DNA of 64,000 bases from Parcubacteria group bacterium. GTDB lineage: Bacteria; Patescibacteriota; Minisyncoccia; Phycocordibacterales; Phycocordibacteraceae. Below are positions 1-63,094 of this stretch, piece after piece (position 1 is the stretch's first letter; the number at the start of each line of letters is the position of its first letter). The notes under the pieces were generated by a model, which made no database searches, was not told the origin of the DNA, and worked only from the letters and a program-made list of their open reading frames with translations. Location of the stretch: assembly GCA_028286615.1 (NCBI GenBank), contig JAQBRG010000004.1, positions 36,480 through 100,479 on the forward strand, written 5' to 3'. The position numbers and the translations under genes are program-made.

Positions 1-199
1 CCCAAGCAGAGCTTTTTAGCTTGTTTTCTGTCGAACTCAAGAAAAGAGACGTCAAAGGCGGAACTATAATCATGCGGTTCGGCGACACTGACTACACAGG
101 CGGCACCGTTGAGCACCTGCACGCGCAACTCGTTTCAGGCGCGAAGAGAGGCAAGGGACGAGAGATGATACTAACCGCACTCGGGTACAAAACCAAAAA

Positions 200-1054
200 C
201 TAAACGTTTTGTACCAAGATTATTTCTATACCAGCATTCTTAAGAATTCCGTCTGCATCTAGGCGTGAGTAGCCTTGCGAATAATAGACTTTTGATATTC
301 CCGATCGTGCTATTAAAAAAGCGCAGTTGATGCAAGGGAAAGTACTTGAATACATTGACGCTCCAGCAAGCGAGATCCCTTCTTTTGCTGCCTGAGATAT
401 CAAGTCCGCTTCTGCATGCATGGAAATATACAGATCCGGCCGCTCTCCAAAATCTACGGTTATTCGTGGCGTACCGAAAATATCGAGGGCAAGGTCCGAA
501 GGGAAATAACGCACATGGGCAACGGCAACGACCTCCCCATTCTTTACTATCAATGCACCTATTTGTCTCCACCAATCAGCACTCTTATCCCCTTCCTGGA
601 TAGCTCGCAGCATAAAATCCTGATGCAGTACATCTGTCGTGATTACACGATCAGACGGTACTTCATTTTCTTTGTTAGAAAATACTCCATCCCATCTCAA
701 GAAGATGTTTTCTAGAGTGATTTGTTTACCTGCAAGAAACTTTTCCGCAAAATCTCTAGACACATCTTCATTTGGAAGTATGAATTCCGCAAAGACAGCA
801 AGGTCTTCAACCTTGTCTATCTCAAGAACCGAGACGTGATCATGTAACTTTAGAGCGTGCAGCGCAGCAACTGCTTCGATAGGTTTAAGTGCCCTCAAGT
901 CTCTATTTAAACGCGGGTACGCGTCTATAAAAGAAGTGCCGAGCACAAATACGTGTGCGTCAGGGTACTTCTTAAAAAAGTTCACGTACCCCGCATGCAG
1001 CGCAGGGACATACGCAATGATTGCCTTACTGTGATCGGAATTTTCGGAGTGCAT
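200..1054 (-). CDS. two-domain protein: N-terminal nucleotidyltransferase-like domain (degenerate HxGH: ALHAGY) fused to C-terminal dCMP/cytidine deaminase zinc domain
   Basis: C-terminal HAEADLI ... PCINCAFLI (CDA-fold H/C-A-E and PCxxC zinc motifs). N-terminal IIAYVPALHAGYVNFFKKY...VFVLG parallels the HxGH nucleotidyltransferase signature of the adjacent gene. Confidence 0.55.
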   Translation of the reverse strand: MHSENSDHSKAIIAYVPALHAGYVNFFKKYPDAHVFVLGTSFIDAYPRLNRDLRALKPIEAVAALHALKLHDHVSVLEIDKVEDLAVFAEFILPNEDVSRDFAEKFLAGKQITLENIFLRWDGVFSNKENEVPSDRVITTDVLHQDFMLRAIQEGDKSADWWRQIGALIVKNGEVVAVAHVRYFPSDLALDIFGTPRITVDFGERPDLYISMHAEADLISQAAKEGISLAGASMYSSTFPCINCAFLIARSGISKVYYSQGYSRLDADGILKNAGIEIILVQNV

Positions 1055-1664
1055 TTTCTACCAGTTGCGGGACACCCGCACTTATCTCCTTAGCGAGCTG
1101 ATCTGCACCACTAATGGTAAGCAGGCGTACGCGTGCCGTTGTCGATGTTGCCGCCTGAGGAGGGAGCACGACAATTTCCCCACAGCAGTTTTTGTATTCC
1201 ATCATTTCCTTTTTGGAAAAGTCTTTTGTTGATGCGGAAGTGATCAAAACATCCGGCTTCACAGTTCGAATGAGTTTCTCCATACCGTGCTCCAATTCTC
1301 GAACAGTAAGTATGCTTACTGAGCGTAAGTGCGCGAGCATCTGGAGACGTTCTGATTGCGGAACAATTGGACGTGTTGGTCCTTTGCGAGCGCTAGTGAG
1401 CTCATCTGAATCCACACCCACAATCAGCAGGTCACCGTATGAGAGTGCCTTCTCTAAATAGCGTGCGTGACCTTCATGGAGCATGTCGTACACACCTTGC
1501 GTAAGCACGATCTTGTACCCCATCCGCTTTAAGTCACTCACCACTCCTTCAAGCTCTTTCATATCAGGAATGAGACGGTCCTCAAGATTAGATCCTGAAG
1601 AAAGAATGTTTTTAACCGTTACTGGTTTTCGCTTGATGGTCTTGGCAGCGCTTTTTGAAGACAT
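1026..1664 (-). CDS. cytidylyltransferase-family nucleotidyltransferase (TagD / RfaE-domain-II-like)
   Basis: IVLTQGVYDMLHEGHARYLEKA...LLIVGVDSDE...EIVVLP...STT pattern of HxGH nucleotidyltransferases. Overlaps the upstream gene by 29 nt. Confidence 0.55.
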   Translation of the reverse strand: MSSKSAAKTIKRKPVTVKNILSSGSNLEDRLIPDMKELEGVVSDLKRMGYKIVLTQGVYDMLHEGHARYLEKALSYGDLLIVGVDSDELTSARKGPTRPIVPQSERLQMLAHLRSVSILTVRELEHGMEKLIRTVKPDVLITSASTKDFSKKEMMEYKNCCGEIVVLPPQAATSTTARVRLLTISGADQLAKEISAGVPQLVENALRKFRSQ

Positions 1665-1710
1665 ATATTCAGTTGGATTATGCTGATAGTATACGAGTAC
1701 TTACCTAGCT

Positions 1711-2232
1711 ATGCACACCGTTGACGATACCGAAAAAAGAAGCCGAATATCACTTATCGCTGCTCTCGGAGAGAACCGAGTCATAGGCAAGGAAGGAACT
1801 CTTCCTTGGCATCTTCCTGAAGATCTTAAACGCTTCAAGCAATTAACAATCGGCCACCCCGTTATCATGGGCCGCAAGACTTGGGAATCTATTCCCGAGA
1901 AGTTCCGTCCTCTTCCTGGACGCACTAACTTTGTTATAACTCGAGACCCCGACTACGAAGCTCCTGGCGTACTGCTCTCCTTTACACTCGAAGAAGCCAT
2001 TGCTGCAGCAGCATTTATGCCAGGCAGCGAAGAAATATTTATAATTGGCGGAGGACAGATTTACGCTGCTGCGCTTCCCTTTGCAGACCGTCTGTATCTC
2101 ACAGTAATAAAGGGGGCGGTTGACGGAGATGTATTCTTTCCTGAATACACGGAGTTTGCACATGAAATCTCTAGAGAACATGGAGAGCAAGGAGACATCC
2201 AGTTCGACTGGGTTGCGTTAGAGAAGAAATAA
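1711..2232 (+). CDS. folA: dihydrofolate reductase
   Basis: ISLIAALGENRVIGKEGTLPWHLPEDLKRFKQLT...VIMGRKTWESIP...PLPGRTNFVITR, the classic DHFR signature; 173 aa. Confidence 0.9.
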   Translation: MHTVDDTEKRSRISLIAALGENRVIGKEGTLPWHLPEDLKRFKQLTIGHPVIMGRKTWESIPEKFRPLPGRTNFVITRDPDYEAPGVLLSFTLEEAIAAAAFMPGSEEIFIIGGGQIYAAALPFADRLYLTVIKGAVDGDVFFPEYTEFAHEISREHGEQGDIQFDWVALEKK

Positions 2233-2239
2233 AAAAGAA

Positions 2240-2275
2240 CCCCGAGAGCGCCACAACGTGTGATCACTCTCGGGG
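2240..2275 (-). terminator. hairpin (ccccgagag/ctctcgggg) followed by a T-tract on the minus strand; overlaps the stop of the 2264..3421 gene and lies just after folA
   Basis: 9-bp perfect stem; the T-run is on the minus-strand side only. Confidence 0.45.
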
Positions 2276-3421
2276 TCGTAACTCGGGCCAGTCGCCCAGA
2301 TGAAACTGTTCTGTTTCAGTCGTCTTAGCTTTGCTCGCAGTCTTTCGTCTTCCGTCAGTTCGAACTTGTAGGTGGGCTTTCTCGAAAAGCGGCGTTTCCT
2401 TGAGAAGCGGCATGCGCTCGCGAATTCGAGTCCGTATTTCCCCTGTCTGGTAATACGCTCCAGGGAATACGTTGAATTGGCATTCTAGTTCGAGCGGGCA
2501 GATGGCGCAGGTTAAGAGATATGCCTTTTGGTGCGCCGAATTGTTCCAGTTAACCTCGTTGGGTTCTGGATATATCTTCTTATTATTCTCGTCCCGCTGC
2601 ACAGCCGAACTGGTGTTGCCCGGAGACCTGCCGCACATCACAACTGAAAGCATCCAGAGCGCGTTGCCGAGTTCTACAAGAGACACGTTGTGCTTCCGGC
2701 AATAGCCCTCGAGGACTTCAATCCCCTTCGGAGCAACCTGTTCGTATCGAAGCTTGCCCGTGCGGTCTTCGTCGTCCACAAGAACCCGTGAAGCCACGAG
2801 AATCCTGCAAAGATGGAAATCAACTGGCGGCGAAGCGGTGAACTCCGCAACAAGATTAGCTTCCATGAGGTAGTACGCGAGCATGCTCGCCATCTTTTCC
2901 TGAAAGCCGAGGAATCCCCATCCGAAGTGATCAGCCGTCTCCGGCTTCTTGCCCCGAATCCGTTTGTTGGTTATCCGCTCGTACATGTCCGCAGCAGAGG
3001 TCACTTCGTCAAAGATGGTGCGAGGGTCGCCTTGCCAAAACTGGACCAAGCGACAAGAGTTCTCGTACCAGAAGTGGGCGATTTCCTCTTTCTTGTAGGG
3101 AATCTTGGCTCCCAGAACGTCCTGCAGTTCTTGTTGCGAGACAGAGTTAACCACCGAGAAGGGGTCAAAGTATTCCGGATGTTCCTCCCAAACCCGCACC
3201 AGCTGCCTAACAGCATGGTCGCTTTTGATAGTGCCGCGCATGTAGTGACAGATGTAGAACAAGAATCGCGCCCACAGAAGCGGGTCCTGCCGAATTTCCT
3301 TAGGTATAAAGGTTTGCGGCAATGCCCAGTCTTCTCCGTACGGATACTGTTTGTTTCTGAGAGCTGCCAAAAGCTGCCCGCAGACGATCTCAGCTTGAGA
3401 CCAGTCAATGTGTACAGTCAT
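2264..3421 (-). CDS. HhH-GPD superfamily DNA glycosylase-like protein (Ogg-like)
   Basis: RQDPLLWARFLFYICHYMRGTIKSDHAVRQL resembles the OGG1 [23 protein letters not shown] block. A later PPVDFHLCRIL resembles the PVDVHM/VDTHV catalytic-Asp region of HhH-GPD glycosylases. Assignment is by motif only. Confidence 0.4.
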   Translation of the reverse strand: MTVHIDWSQAEIVCGQLLAALRNKQYPYGEDWALPQTFIPKEIRQDPLLWARFLFYICHYMRGTIKSDHAVRQLVRVWEEHPEYFDPFSVVNSVSQQELQDVLGAKIPYKKEEIAHFWYENSCRLVQFWQGDPRTIFDEVTSAADMYERITNKRIRGKKPETADHFGWGFLGFQEKMASMLAYYLMEANLVAEFTASPPVDFHLCRILVASRVLVDDEDRTGKLRYEQVAPKGIEVLEGYCRKHNVSLVELGNALWMLSVVMCGRSPGNTSSAVQRDENNKKIYPEPNEVNWNNSAHQKAYLLTCAICPLELECQFNVFPGAYYQTGEIRTRIRERMPLLKETPLFEKAHLQVRTDGRRKTASKAKTTETEQFHLGDWPELRPRE

Positions 3422-3480
3422 GTGGCGCCCTTTGTTTCAATGAGTCCGGGTTCACTATACGCAGCCACCCAAACGAGTCA

Positions 3481-3510
3481 ATTAAAAGAAAACCGCTCCT
3501 AGTGGAGCGG
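3481..3510 (-). terminator. rho-independent terminator after the ParB-like gene
   Basis: ccgctcc-tagt-ggagcgg stem with a ttttctttt tract on the minus strand. Confidence 0.5.
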
Positions 3511-4764
3511 CGAGGCAGTAGACACCTCTTCAAGTTTTGCGAAGGCTCGTAGGCCTGGAAGAAATTCGGCCATTTCTGGATGGCTTTTCAGAAGACGTTT
3601 CCATCCTCCTCTACCCTCTTTCCGGGCTAGTTCAGCTAGACCTGGAATGATGTTTTCGATTCGTTCAACAACAGCAACTAGCATTCGTATAGGACTGGCT
3701 GGCGAGTAGTAGTGCAGTTCTTCTGACGTCTTGATGGGCGCCATGTAACTTTCCTTCCCAAGCACTCCTGCCCTTCTGAAGTTTTCAACGACTTCAAAGT
3801 AGGCAATGATTTTCCAGAGTGCCGGGACGAGTTCCCGCTTAACCGTACGCCGCATGCGGTGTTCATGTGCAACATCAGATTCTTCGAGATTGAAGAGTGA
3901 GAGCTGCCCGGCTTTTTGGCTTCGCAGGTCTTCAAGATACTCGCTAACCTTGCGTCCGAAGGTTGTGGCATTCAGTTGGCTAGCCACAGCATCACGCACC
4001 CACCGGTGCATGCCTTCTTCGGCGAGCTTTTCTCCCATAAGCAGCTCGTATCCCTCGGCAAGACGCGCGAGATCCACAAGAGCTCCATACGGCAGACGCA
4101 ATTTCCAAGCGTTATCTCCTGTGACAAGTGCCTGGATGCTTGGCGGCAGGGAGCAGAAGCGCAACGCGCTCTTTACCCATTCCGTCGTGCGTCCGATAGT
4201 GCGAGCGTATTGTCCTGGCGTGAGACCTGGATTTTTCCGTCGCTTATGCCGGTAGAATCGCCAAGCAGCTTCTGCTTCTTGGTGAAGTGGGGGCGTGGTG
4301 TGGCGGTTCTCTTGGAACTGAAGCTCGATAGCTCGCTCAGCATCCATGTCGAAATGGAGTTCAGCGAGATACCCGCTCTCGTAGTTTTCCGTGGGCACGT
4401 ACTTGCCAGTCTTGATACCTAGTTCAACGTGCTGGCTCGTTGCGTGTCGCCGGTGTCCCGCGAAGATGGCGAGGTAGTACTCGTCACCGTCGAGTTCAAC
4501 AGGAATTAAGTCATGTACGGTGTGGTGCGAATCGAAGATCGCATTGATTTCATCAACGTACACCCGAGCCTGATGTGGATCGAGTGCGGCAACCATGCCT
4601 GGCGTTAACTGTCCTTGGGACAGGAAGCTTGGCACCAAGTCTTCGTCTATCTCGTAGGTCTTGCGGACCTGCTCAAGCACAGAGAAGCATTCTGCAGGAA
4701 GACGGACCTTAACGACCCGTTGCACCCGCACCGTGATGTCGTCGAGTCGATATGAGGCAAACAT
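3499..4764 (-). CDS. ParB-like nuclease (ParB/Srx N-domain) plus HTH protein, stand-alone
   Basis: LIPVELDGDEYYLAIFAGHRRHATSQHVELG (ParB GxxRxxA-type box), followed by an HTH-like segment GLTPGQYARTIGRTTEWVKSALRF. No parA is present nearby. Confidence 0.5.
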   Translation of the reverse strand: MFASYRLDDITVRVQRVVKVRLPAECFSVLEQVRKTYEIDEDLVPSFLSQGQLTPGMVAALDPHQARVYVDEINAIFDSHHTVHDLIPVELDGDEYYLAIFAGHRRHATSQHVELGIKTGKYVPTENYESGYLAELHFDMDAERAIELQFQENRHTTPPLHQEAEAAWRFYRHKRRKNPGLTPGQYARTIGRTTEWVKSALRFCSLPPSIQALVTGDNAWKLRLPYGALVDLARLAEGYELLMGEKLAEEGMHRWVRDAVASQLNATTFGRKVSEYLEDLRSQKAGQLSLFNLEESDVAHEHRMRRTVKRELVPALWKIIAYFEVVENFRRAGVLGKESYMAPIKTSEELHYYSPASPIRMLVAVVERIENIIPGLAELARKEGRGGWKRLLKSHPEMAEFLPGLRAFAKLEEVSTASPLH

Positions 4765-4852: not shown

Positions 4853-5593
4853 CTATGCTCTCTTCCCCCTCTTCCACTTCTTTCCCGTGTGTAGAAATGG
4901 GGCAAAGAGATCGTCGTTAAGTGCAACAACCAGTGGTTCAGGTTTCTGTTTTCTTTCTGTAAACGTAACCTGCGTTGCGTTTCGTATAACGGCTATAGGT
5001 GTCTGCTGGTTTCCTTCTCCCATTTCAAGCACCGCAGCAACCGCAAGCGCGTCTGCGATATTCGCAACTTCCATTTGAAATGGGCGCCCGAATATATCCG
5101 GAGTATCTTTATACGATTGCAGTGGTTCGAACCCGTCCCAGGACAATGCGAATCCAACTGCACCTCGGCGCAGAGGAAGACTAATGGAGTCGGTTATAAC
5201 AACACCGAGTTGTTTGATGCCGTATTCCCTCTTAAGCCAATTGCGTAACCGTCTCGCGCTTTGCATTGGATCTTTGGGATACAGAATGTAGTGCCCGTTT
5301 CCGTTGCTTTCATCTATACCTGAAGCTCCCGCGAGTGCTCCCGCTGAAATGGTATAGAGCTTTTTATACTTGGCCCGGGGAAACTCAATGTATCGCTCTG
5401 CCTCCTGTCTCTTAAGCTTCTCTTTATCTATTCCCTCCATAGGAAGACAGATGCCTTCGTCTATAGAAACAACTTTGGAAGAGATAGCTACAATGTCTCC
5501 TTCTTTCAACTGCATCCTCGATGCCTTAATGGCTTCAAGAAGATTGTCCTTGGGAGGAAGAAGCTTTCGGAGTTTGTACGCAGTTACTTGCAT
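4853..5593 (-). CDS. CofE-like (F420-0:gamma-glutamyl ligase family) protein
   Basis: GDIVAISSKVVSIDEG ... GVVITDS motif pattern; 246 aa. Confidence 0.4.
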   Translation of the reverse strand: MQVTAYKLRKLLPPKDNLLEAIKASRMQLKEGDIVAISSKVVSIDEGICLPMEGIDKEKLKRQEAERYIEFPRAKYKKLYTISAGALAGASGIDESNGNGHYILYPKDPMQSARRLRNWLKREYGIKQLGVVITDSISLPLRRGAVGFALSWDGFEPLQSYKDTPDIFGRPFQMEVANIADALAVAAVLEMGEGNQQTPIAVIRNATQVTFTERKQKPEPLVVALNDDLFAPFLHTGKKWKRGKRA

Positions 5594-5609
5594 TGCCTCA
5601 CCCTAAAGC

Positions 5610-5650
5610 AAAACAGCCCCGGCGCAAGGCCGGGGCTGTTTTGTGTTTTC
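5610..5650 (-). terminator. bidirectional hairpin terminator downstream of rplK
   Basis: aacagccccggc-gcaa-gccggggctgtt stem with T-rich tracts on both strands. Confidence 0.6.
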
Positions 5651-61909: not shown

Positions 61910-63037
61910 GTGTCTTCGGGACAGAATGCATACTGGATTCCTGGCGCCGTAATCGCCGCAAGCCTACTTCTTGGGATAGGAATCGCCCTAACACCGCACT
62001 CTGCAGGTGCTTTCTGGCCATTTTCTGTAACAAACGCCGCTTCTGGTGTTGATTCTCCTATTATTCATGACAGCAGCATCGATCTTTTGGATGCTGCAAC
62101 CAATTCGGATCCCAATCCAAGCAAGGGAGAGGGCTCCATTGCCATGACTGAGGGATCTGCCCTTATCTCAAACGCGGGTCCTGAGGGAACGGTTTCTGAC
62201 GCAGATCATGGCTCTTCTGGTCAAATTAGTACGTACGTAGTGCGTGATGGGGACTCAATCTCAGAGATTGCAGACACTTTTAACGTTTCTGTTAGTACCA
62301 TCCTTTGGGCAAACGGCCTTACAGCCAAGAGTGCCATTAACCCAGGCATGAAACTGGTTATCCTCCCTGTCTCAGGTGTCAGGCATACTGTTGCTAAGGG
62401 CGAGACGCTTGCGGGTATTGCAAAGAAATATGGCGCAGATACTAGCGATATCGGTTCTTACAACGGCGTGGACGAGGATGCCTCTGTTGCTGTAGGCGAC
62501 GTGCTTATAATTCCTGGTGGAGAAATACAAGCTGCGGCAACAACCAAGGCCAAGACTTCTACAACTAAAACAGCCGCTAAGAGCACCATTAAGACCGGAG
62601 GCAGTCTCTCATCAGTACAGTCAAACCCATTCAAGGGAGGATCTGGCGCTGCTCTTCCTGGATACTTTGGAAATCCTGTTCCGGGCGGACGCCTAACCCA
62701 GGGAGTACACGGCTGGAATGGTGTTGATATAGGCGCTCCTTCAGGTACCCCAGTGTACGCCGCAGCTGCTGGAACCGTTATTGTCTCTCGTGTAGGTGGC
62801 TGGAACGGAGGATACGGCAACTATGTGGTTATAGACCATGGTAACGGCACTCAAAGCCTCTACGCGCACCTCTCAGCAGACAGTGTTTCCGTTGGCGAAA
62901 CAGTAAGCAAGGGTGAAACTGTCGGTTCTGTGGGCAAGACAGGAGAAGCAACAGGTTTCCATCTCCACTTTGAAGTCCGAGGTGCAAAGAACCCATTTGC
63001 AGGCTGTGCGGCTATGAGTTTCTGTAGCCCAGAATAA
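61910..63037 (+). CDS. LysM-domain M23 peptidase
   Basis: Two LysM repeats (YVVRDGDSISEIA..., HTVAKGETLAGIA...), then an M23 HxxxD ... HLHFE zinc motif. Confidence 0.85.
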   Translation: MSSGQNAYWIPGAVIAASLLLGIGIALTPHSAGAFWPFSVTNAASGVDSPIIHDSSIDLLDAATNSDPNPSKGEGSIAMTEGSALISNAGPEGTVSDADHGSSGQISTYVVRDGDSISEIADTFNVSVSTILWANGLTAKSAINPGMKLVILPVSGVRHTVAKGETLAGIAKKYGADTSDIGSYNGVDEDASVAVGDVLIIPGGEIQAAATTKAKTSTTKTAAKSTIKTGGSLSSVQSNPFKGGSGAALPGYFGNPVPGGRLTQGVHGWNGVDIGAPSGTPVYAAAAGTVIVSRVGGWNGGYGNYVVIDHGNGTQSLYAHLSADSVSVGETVSKGETVGSVGKTGEATGFHLHFEVRGAKNPFAGCAAMSFCSPE

Positions 63038-63094
63038 GCTTTGGTAAAGCAAAACGGCCCTCTAGAGAGGGCCGTTTTGCTTTACCTTCCAATA

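Follow-up and report, generated by a model that had tools for sequence, protein, structure and literature searches.

A conserved gene pair for a ParB-type protein and a putative Fe-S DNA glycosylase adjoins a thymidylate/folate block in a Parcubacteria genome

The stretch analysed here (the window) comprises 64,000 nucleotides of contig JAQBRG010000004.1 from a Parcubacteria group bacterium (assembly GCA_028286615.1, positions 36,480 to 100,479) and carries, close to its start, five adjacent genes which an earlier note on this DNA had proposed to form a single nucleotide- or DNA-modification module. All five open reading frames (ORFs) are present with the boundaries given there. They encode a dCMP deaminase with an additional N-terminal domain (g1), a cytidylyl/adenylyltransferase-family protein (g2), dihydrofolate reductase (DHFR; g3, folA), a putative DNA glycosylase of the HhH-GPD superfamily (g4) and a divergent ParB/Noc/KorB-type protein (g5). 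The g4/g5 pair corresponds to JWN64_490 and JWN64_491 in the source records. The region was compared with related loci (labelled L001, L002, etc.) and related proteins (P-numbers), and the five genes were found to be two independent units, i.e. a thymidylate/folate block (g1-g2-g3) and a g5-g4 pair that lies at the rplK-folA junction in this lineage. Three features had no place in the earlier note, namely the adjacent ligase gene g6, a HIT-like gene fragment at the window start and the split into two blocks.

Separation of the two units was evident from the gene order of relatives. The thymidylate block abuts rplK and lacks g4, g5 and g6 in L064 and L065, and is found at another place, likewise without g4 or g5, in L066. 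The pair is located away from the block in L001, about 5 kb from it with unrelated genes between in L002, and in unrelated neighbourhoods in other lineages of the Candidate Phyla Radiation (CPR). The order in L062 and L068 is L11 - g5 - g4 - ligase - DHFR, which puts the pair on the rplK side of the ligase as compared to the DHFR side in the window, and L004 has L11 - g5 - DHFR without g4. As the block occurs without the pair, the pair occurs without the block and the pair can lie on either side of g6, the five genes do not form one system. A single nucleotide/DNA-modification or salvage system would account for the adjacency of all five genes in the window and for the pair standing beside DHFR also in L007, L062, L067 and L068. 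This proposal is hardly tenable and is already largely refuted by the neighbourhood data, as the pair lacks the block in most CPR loci and DCD replaces g1/g2 in the thymidylate blocks of L062 and L067. Conservation of the neighbourhood across CPR genomes, put forward as a check on the proposal, failed for the five-gene cluster and held for the g4-g5 pair. The features of the region are collected in Table 1.

Table 1. Genes and sequence features at the start of the window (positions are those of the window)
Feature	Position	Strand	Remarks
HIT-like gene fragment	3..203	+	C-terminal 66 codons; cut by window start; member of thymidylate block
g1, N-domain (aa 1-140) plus dCMP deaminase	200..1054	-	284 aa
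g2, cytidylyl/adenylyltransferase-family protein with HEGH motif	1026..1664	-	212 aa; 29-nt overlap with g1
g3, dihydrofolate reductase (folA)	1711..2232	+	173 aa; Pfam DHFR_1 4.9e-53
g4, divergent HhH-GPD-superfamily protein, putative [4Fe-4S] DNA glycosylase/AP (apurinic/apyrimidinic)-lyase-like	2264..3421	-	385 aa
14-bp perfect palindrome GCGAGCATGCTCGC	2877..2890		within g4, codons A178-S-M-L-A182; candidate cis-element, possibly parS-like
Terminator-like hairpin and promoter-like site between g5 and g4	3454..3511	-	consensus scan only
g5, divergent ParB/Noc/KorB-type protein	3499..4764	-	421 aa
g6, CofE-like gamma-glutamyl ligase	4853..5593	-	246 aa; Pfam F420_ligase 2.5e-34
Intrinsic terminator downstream of rplK	5609..5643	-	15-bp perfect inverted repeat, then T-run
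rplK, nusG, secE	beyond 5643	-	ribosomal-protein operon; boundary marked by terminator 5609..5643

The distribution of the pair was examined in 51 g4 loci from a scan of GTDB species representatives and, with iterated hidden Markov models, in a pair count of 55 distinct loci. Every g4 locus with a named lineage was from the CPR (i.e. Paceibacteria, Saccharibacteria, Wolfe-, Lipton-, Zambryski-, Falkow- and Campbellbacteria and Moraniibacteriota). A g5-like gene was directly adjacent to g4 in 21 of the 55 loci and lay 5 kb away in 1 further locus; clustering of all neighbours identified this as the only widespread neighbour family of g4. Tandem, reverse-tandem, convergent and divergent arrangements of the pair were observed, covering Paceibacteria, Wolfebacteria and Saccharibacteria. 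Adjacency of g4 and g5 is hence conserved across CPR classes, and the earlier note was right in picking out a stand-alone ParB-like protein beside a glycosylase as the unusual part of the region. ParB-linked genes were present in at least three clades of the g4 tree, in which taxa are mixed. Identity matrices of g4 and g5 were correlated (r = 0.52, Mantel p about 2e-4), in part due to shared phylogeny. Loci of g5 with enough flank mostly carried g4, the exceptions being L004 and L005/L060. The g4 family is of moderate size (of 1.84 billion clusters at 50% identity, 705 belong to it at E ≤ 1e-3), and a metagenome scan with g5 returned only four short loci. L023 and L038 encode canonical ParBs 3.5-4 kb away from g4; these proteins are without the insertion typical of the g5 family and were excluded from the pair count. 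Integration of the pair as an island at tRNA or tmRNA genes was considered and dropped, a tmRNA being near the pair in L029 and L030 only.

Other genes were found next to g4. A protein of about 266 aa with invariant D...E-x-K...Q residues abuts the 3' end of g4, in place of the ParB-like gene, in six loci of another g4 clade (L010, L017, L032, L035, L039 and L041). By eye this protein looks PD-(D/E)xK-like; library and PDB searches with it gave no match. His-Me/HNH endonuclease genes abut g4, besides g5, in three Saccharibacteria loci (L020, L048 and L055). A reverse-transcriptase family was detected near g4/g5 in the Saccharibacteria loci L020, L052 and L055; the L020 member, the only one scanned with Pfam and PADLOC, was retron-type. 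The positions of these endonuclease and reverse-transcriptase genes are L020 3494-5204, L048 6916-7581, L055 2438-3397 and 6654-7169, and L052 165-1117.

The g4 and g5 proteins were modelled with AlphaFold2 from family alignments. The g4 model (predicted local distance difference test (pLDDT) 86, predicted template modelling score (pTM) 0.83) has the two-lobe, all-helical architecture with a central helix-hairpin-helix (HhH) by which the superfamily is recognised. The motif GFLGFQE-K176-MASML...ASPPV-D201-FHLCR fits an HhH followed by a Gly/Pro-rich loop and an Asp: in the model K176 opens helix 175-187, a Pro-rich loop comes next and D201 caps helix 202-210 (PPVDFHLCR; compare VD138THIFRV of Nth). 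In 46 diverse g4 family members, with identities down to 27%, K176, C263, C305, C308 and C314 were invariant and D201 was at least 90% conserved. The HhH Lys and Asp are the sole residues invariant across HhH glycosylases and Qng1 (PMC9881137). Alignment of the g4 family with E. coli Nth using hhalign was limited to the Cys motif, with C305-x2-C308-x5-C314 of g4 placed on C194, C197 and C203. The fourth Cys, C263, ends a Trp-containing helix (ALWMLSVVMC; compare HHWLILHGRYTC187 of Nth) and sits 41 residues upstream of the second Cys versus 6 in the C-x6-C-x2-C-x5-C arrangement of Nth; these four residues are candidate [4Fe-4S] ligands. The g4 protein also has an insertion of about 20 aa in the HhH hairpin before the Lys, additional helices at the N-terminus, in which the motif CHYMRGxIKS is invariant, and a disordered and variable C-terminus (354-385). 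No match to g4 was obtained in Pfam (including HhH-GPD PF00730, AGOG and OGG), NCBIfam (nth/mutY), PHROGs, PADLOC or a PDB profile search. Weak AGOG matches (E = 0.004) were found in just 3 of the 46 relatives, AGOG and DUF3974 being the only Pfam models seen among them. The predicted fold together with the conserved catalytic and candidate ligand residues points to g4 being a catalytically competent Fe-S HhH-GPD enzyme, and retention of the HhH lysine suggests lyase chemistry besides base excision. In one subclade of g4 relatives (P0207, P0280, P0284, P0286 and P0305) the N-terminus is extended by about 120 aa; these extensions are homologous to one another and matched no Pfam model.

A different activity for g4 has to be weighed at this point. 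The enzyme could be a glycosidase similar to Qng1 (DUF2419; 7-deazaguanine-nucleotide glycosylase) whose substrates are free (modified) nucleotides salvaged by an auxotrophic CPR cell, with the adjacency of g5 having no mechanistic meaning. The insertion before the HhH lysine occurs in Qng1 as well, and nucleotide-metabolism genes adjoin g4 in the window. These genes are a lineage-specific neighbourhood, and the partners of g4 are DNA-binding or nuclease-like. Four invariant Cys in an EndoIII-like C-x2-C-x5-C arrangement, which is a DNA-binding element not present in Qng1, also argue against this reading, as does the absence of any Pfam match to g4 and, weak AGOG matches aside, to its relatives; the DUF2419 model found neither g4 nor any of the 46 relatives. 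Overall, a salvage glycosidase appears to be a remote prospect.

Prediction of g5 as a ParB N-domain joined to a helix-turn-helix (HTH) was borne out by structural and profile comparisons. In the g5 model (pLDDT 79) an N-terminal nucleoside triphosphate (NTP)-binding fold is followed by an HTH at about aa 180-215, and the C-terminal residues 297-417 are helical. Foldseek matches were exclusively to ParB-CDP, ParB-CTPgammaS, Noc, KorB and Spo0J structures and covered the N-domain and HTH, with a probability of 1.0 over about 260-275 columns for 6sdk, 7bnk, 7nfu, 8qa9, 1vz0 and 6t1f; a PDB profile search returned ParB/Noc/Spo0J only. Comparison with B. subtilis Spo0J by hhalign (79% probability, E = 1.6e-5) covered both domains and mapped Q32/R34 of g5 to Q37/R39, G103-H-R-R106 to G77-E-R-R80, E152-N153 to E111-N112 and the HTH to its counterpart, and placed a 33-aa insertion of g5 between box I and box II. 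The nucleotide-pocket residues Q32, R34, R105, R106, E152 and N153 are conserved in the g5 family. The window protein itself fell below every Pfam threshold, had no match in PHROGs or in a first search of PDB sequences and in NCBIfam reached TIGR00180 only (20.8 bits versus a cutoff of 58), whilst relatives from L013, L020 and L029 passed the Pfam ParB_N or HTH_ParB gathering scores.

Evidence for a segregation role of g5 was sought in its surroundings. The window was found to hold no ParB-like gene besides g5. The lack of a parA partner, as the earlier note had it, stands in so far as no ParA-like gene was called beside g5 in the window or the inspected related loci, parA itself not having been searched for. 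The ParA-interaction motif LG(K/R)GL was not seen on reading the g5 N-terminus. Of the marks of a ParABS system (adjacent parA, interaction motif and parS), only a site candidate was seen here, namely the palindrome inside g4. The g5 proteins form a branch of their own, distinct from ordinary segregation ParBs; their insertion is missing from the canonical ParBs of L023 and L038. The g5 homologue of L001 (6640-7923) is split into ORFs of 352 and 69 aa and may be a pseudogene.

The palindrome (GCGAGCATGCTCGC) overlies codons of the g4 HhH helix and is also present at L002 8529, L007 3649, L062 9904 and L067 635. It was noticed post hoc and occurs as one copy per locus. Codon use was compared for the five orthologues (window, L007, L062, L002 and L067; 46-65% protein identity), of which L067 was added later as a test. 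All five had the same codon at 8 of 101 invariant degenerate positions (7.9%). The palindrome accounts for three of the eight through its consecutive Ala, Ser and Leu codons, which form the only three-codon run kept in all five. These codons are 4-, 6- and 6-fold degenerate and are not preferred here. With synonymous sites fixed and the flanking codons varying freely, the pattern indicates nucleotide-level selection on the palindrome. HTH dimers of the ParB family bind sequences such as a 14-bp palindrome, and the strongest B. subtilis parS is located inside spo0J. The palindrome could be a parS-like site for g5, or alternatively could form an RNA hairpin. It is absent from L001 (where g5 is split; KMAAML, GCA GCG ATG CTT), L008, L009 and other more distant pairs checked, and a related 12-bp palindrome lies at the same g4 codons in L003 and L039, which are without a ParB gene. 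No parS-like palindromes were found in the intergenic regions of the window, and no strong hairpin was seen there apart from the terminator of rplK. GCATGC-centred palindromes beside g5 in L005, L008 and L009 were rejected as sites, being long GC-rich hairpins followed by T-runs, i.e. terminators.

A rival explanation gives g5 no part in catalysis or targeting. The g4 product could be a lineage-specific housekeeping repair glycosylase substituting for Nth/Ogg, with g5 serving only as a KorB-like regulator or an unrelated nucleoid protein. More than half of the g4 genes lack an adjacent g5, synteny is stable in Saccharibacteria, KorB is among the structural matches of g5 and g4 may have its own promoter after a terminator. 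The conserved palindrome fits as well, since g5 could be a regulator if a repressor bound there. The adjacency, however, outlasts four orientations and a fall in g5 identity to about 20%, the alternative partners of g4 are nuclease-like and not regulators, and the nucleotide-pocket residues of g5 are conserved. We regard this explanation as unlikely, whilst giving it more credence than a salvage glycosidase.

The reading that we favour, at a probability of roughly 0.55, is that the region holds two independent units, namely the thymidylate/folate block and an accessory g5-g4 module in which a ParB-type partner targets or activates a DNA glycosylase. The g4 enzyme would flip and excise a base, with DNA as its presumed substrate, and a g5 dimer would bind DNA via its HTH and target, load or activate g4; such physical and functional coupling is proposed by parallel with DpdB for DpdA and with phage ParB proteins for 5mYOX dioxygenases. 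As its role we favour accessory DNA surveillance, in which unusual (foreign, modified or damaged) bases would be excised. The nuclease-like alternative partners, reverse-transcriptase neighbours, patchy distribution and taxon-mixing tree suggest a conflict- or defence-like role for the pair, to which we give somewhat less than an even chance. Stable synteny in Saccharibacteria and the lack of a defence-library match suggest plain repair, which is the less probable of the two roles. A bolder version, which is tentative and on balance doubtful, has g5 as an NTP-gated clamp that would nucleate on the 14-bp palindrome in g4 (or on sites like it) and deliver or activate g4 along DNA, in a CPR-confined form of ParB-guided base excision for policing foreign or modified DNA or for clamp-assisted repair.

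Several observations weigh against this favoured reading. In about 60% of g4 loci the flank that is available holds no g5, and L004 and L005 have g5 but lack g4, so that the partnership is not obligatory, at least in cis. The g5 stop codon lies within a terminator-like hairpin (3511-3492) and a promoter-like TTGACT-16-TATAGT site precedes g4 (3481-3454), both being consensus matches only, which suggests that g5 and g4 are transcribed separately despite their tandem order. Qng1, the best structural match of g4 at 13-14% identity, has a free nucleotide as its substrate and carries its insertion at the same place in the HhH hairpin, and the equivalence of K176/D201 with K120/D138 of Nth was taken from the positions of the motifs in the model and not from superposition. 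In window g5 and its subclade the catalytic (hydrolytic) Glu of box II is His104 (GHRR); the Glu is present, as canonical GERR, in relatives from L008, L013, L029, L030 and L056. The proposed PADLOC check produced no defence system: PADLOC 2.0 matched, among the window genes, only the deaminase core of a dCTPase model (g1) and, negligibly, PDC-M54B (g5, E = 0.009). PADLOC on the relatives likewise gave nothing except retron-type reverse-transcriptase and homing-endonuclease matches of neighbouring genes. Viral contigs yielded no relatives of g4 or g5, the pair has a stable syntenic position within Saccharibacteria that looks more housekeeping than mobile, and the GC content of the region (0.47-0.52) is the same as that of the remaining window, its base composition being unremarkable.

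The remaining genes were assigned by profile searches. The deaminase domain of g1 (aa 144-259) matched Pfam PF00383 (2e-14, 53.7 bits versus a cutoff of 25) and a PHROG dCMP deaminase family, and its closest PDB sequences were the dCMP deaminases of T4 and cyanophage S-TIM5. The zinc motifs HAE and PCxxC of the CDA (cytidine deaminase) fold are invariant among homologues (H213, E215, C241 and C244), which together with PF00383 identifies the C-domain as a dCMP deaminase. An anti-phage dCTP deaminase (NF041025) was rejected at 63.6 bits versus a cutoff of 400, as the core at aa 211-274 alone aligns. There are at least 292 g1 homologues; the 120 listed were nearly all full-length (~280 aa), with a few shorter (209-247 aa), and those with a named source were from Parcubacteria (Kaiser-, Adlerbacteria or Paceibacterota). 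The N-domain (aa 1-140) is strongly conserved, with the motifs VPALHAGY, PRLNRDxRAL, LPDEDVSR and FLRWD, and beyond two deaminase models no Pfam domain was found in g1 or these 120 homologues. The N-domain had been taken for a nucleotidyltransferase paralogous to g2. This could not be upheld: BLASTP of g1 against g2 gave E = 11, and hhalign placed HAGY on HEGH of g2 and HWGH of TagD at E = 0.04 and 0.16, respectively, with a probability of ≤1% (1% for g2). The HxGH-type nucleotidyltransferase assignment of g2 was confirmed by Pfam CTP_transf_like (PF01467; 1.6e-17, 64.4 bits versus a cutoff of 21) and TIGR00125 (58 bits versus 27.7), as was that of g3 as DHFR (4.9e-53). No specific NCBIfam equivalog was reached by g2 (RfaE domain II, 103 versus 181.5 bits; PPAT, 40.7 versus 104). 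The 29-nt overlap of g2 and g1 (1026-1054) is repeated in L002, L064, L065 and L066, i.e. every locus seen, which suggests translational coupling and possibly a protein complex.

The ligase g6 was nearest to the putative folate gamma-glutamate ligase TIGR04132 (1.1e-64, 218 bits over the full length, below the cutoff of 350); by its sequence it is CofE-like and closest to the TIGR04132 type without being a certified member, and it belongs with the folate genes and not with g4/g5. The fragment at the window start has 66% identity to the C-terminus of L002 16302-16775. Full-length HIT-like relatives (134-166 aa; L002 16302-16775, L064 5827-6237 and L066 5806-6306) have an HxHxQ motif and sub-threshold HIT/DcpS_C/DUF4931_N matches, and in thymidylate blocks (L002 and L064-L066) their gene is invariably placed between that of the deaminase and thyA. 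The order in L064/L065 is SecE-NusG-L11 / DHFR(-) / CTP_transf-like-deaminase fusion / HIT-like(-) / ThyA(-) / serine hydroxymethyltransferase (SHMT), from which ThyA and SHMT would be expected just past the window edge. In such a block, dUMP would be made from dCMP and dihydrofolate recycled. The g1-g2-g3 genes, with g6, are housekeeping genes and form a thymidylate/folate block of the type usual in this Parcubacteria clade. At the other end of the window (62941-63085, + strand), an Rfam match to STnc70, an enterobacterial small RNA, scored 42 bits against a gathering score of 40 and is probably spurious in a CPR genome.

The pair defines two families that are invisible to Pfam, PHROGs, PADLOC and NCBIfam, save for one sub-threshold ParB match of g5, in a group whose DNA-repair and defence repertoires are poorly known. 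ParB-fold proteins are general NTP-gated switches with few experimentally shown partner enzymes, i.e. a transglycosylase and a dioxygenase; a base-excision enzyme, if confirmed as a partner, would be a third chemistry. ParB-guided base excision would then be a new functional class for both the ParB-CTPase fold and HhH-GPD glycosylases, and with its two proteins the pair would be a simple system in which to study how a clamp, sliding or loading, aids an enzyme in finding rare bases (i.e. the speed-stability problem of lesion search). The g1 N-domain, g2 and the HIT-like protein may in addition point to a route, so far unrecognised, by which dCMP/dUMP is supplied in these auxotrophs.

The two units were compared with known systems. 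The thymidylate-cycle cluster (dCMP deaminase, ThyA, DHFR and SHMT) with a TIGR04132-type ligase is matched at the family level by the g1 C-domain, g3 and g6 and is syntenic in relatives; the differences are the 140-aa N-domain on the deaminase, the coupled cytidylyltransferase-like protein and the HIT-like gene. With Endonuclease III, MutY and ROS1-type [4Fe-4S] glycosylases g4 shares the HhH helix with its Lys, the Pro-rich loop, the Asp at a helix N-cap, the C-terminal C-x2-C-x5-C and an upstream Cys ending a Trp-containing helix. It departs from them in having no sequence-model match, the 41-residue Cys gap, the hairpin insertion, the N-terminal CHYMRGxIKS region and a CPR-only family. Qng1, the queuosine-5'-monophosphate glycosylase, is of similar size and shares the Lys/Asp pair and the insertion before the HhH lysine, whereas it lacks the Cys4 cluster motif, takes a free nucleotide as substrate and is not accompanied by a ParB or a nuclease. 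Of the Qng1 elements that close the DNA cleft (beta-hairpins and a C-terminal tail in the active site), g4 shares only the insertion before the Lys. The g5 protein resembles the CTP-dependent clamps ParB, Noc and KorB in the order of ParB fold and HTH, box I Q-x-R, box II G-x-R-R, box III E-N and a helical C-terminal region that could dimerise, and differs from them in the 33-aa insertion, the box II His, the lack of a called parA neighbour and a glycosylase as conserved neighbour.

The closest parallels for the pair as a whole are systems in which a ParB-fold protein is encoded beside an enzyme acting on DNA bases. DpdB ATPase activity is needed for DpdA transglycosylation in 7-deazaguanine DNA modification (PMC10164549), and certain phage 5mYOX thymine dioxygenases depend on ParB proteins (PMC13229309); a requirement for the ParB-fold partner has been shown for those systems. 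The g5-g4 pair differs from both in that the partner is of the HhH-GPD type and not a TGT-fold transglycosylase or an iron/2-oxoglutarate (Fe/2OG) dioxygenase, and in residing on a CPR chromosome and not in a phage or dpd island. The HTH is kept in g5 and missing from 5mYOX ParBs, and g5 has GHRR/GERR versus DGQQR in DpdB. A base-exchange system like DpdA/DpdB, in which g4 swaps a normal for a modified base and g5 hydrolyses NTP, would be in keeping with the ParB-fold NTPase requirement of DpdA (PMC10164549). Qng1 being the best structural match of g4 would fit too, and HhH enzymes can form covalent C1' intermediates. We know of no HhH-GPD enzyme that catalyses base insertion, however, and the box II sequence of g5 is not that of DpdB. 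No queC/D/E, folE or restriction partner stands beside the pair in the inspected loci, and with no TGT-like or que genes in these neighbourhoods the locus does not qualify as a Dpd system. Base exchange is accordingly very improbable.

No description of a pair of this kind was found in the literature on ParB with glycosylase, EndoIII, Patescibacteria or antiphage, and a survey of ParB-CTPases mentions neither glycosylases nor Patescibacteria (PMC12704722). A ParA-TAG interaction in mycobacteria was set aside as unrelated. Parallels for a defence-like role are Brig1 and END nucleases, in which a glycosylase-fold base-flipping module recognises non-canonical bases, sometimes together with a nuclease (PMC12191111); HNH or PD-(D/E)xK-like genes next to g4 in some clades, with retron-type reverse transcriptases nearby, resemble this arrangement. 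END nucleases have a catalytically dead EndoIII domain in one protein with the nuclease, whereas g4 is a separate protein that retains both the Lys and the Asp. The g5-g4 pair is thus apparently an undescribed, CPR-restricted variant of the theme of a ParB-fold partner joined to a DNA base-acting enzyme.

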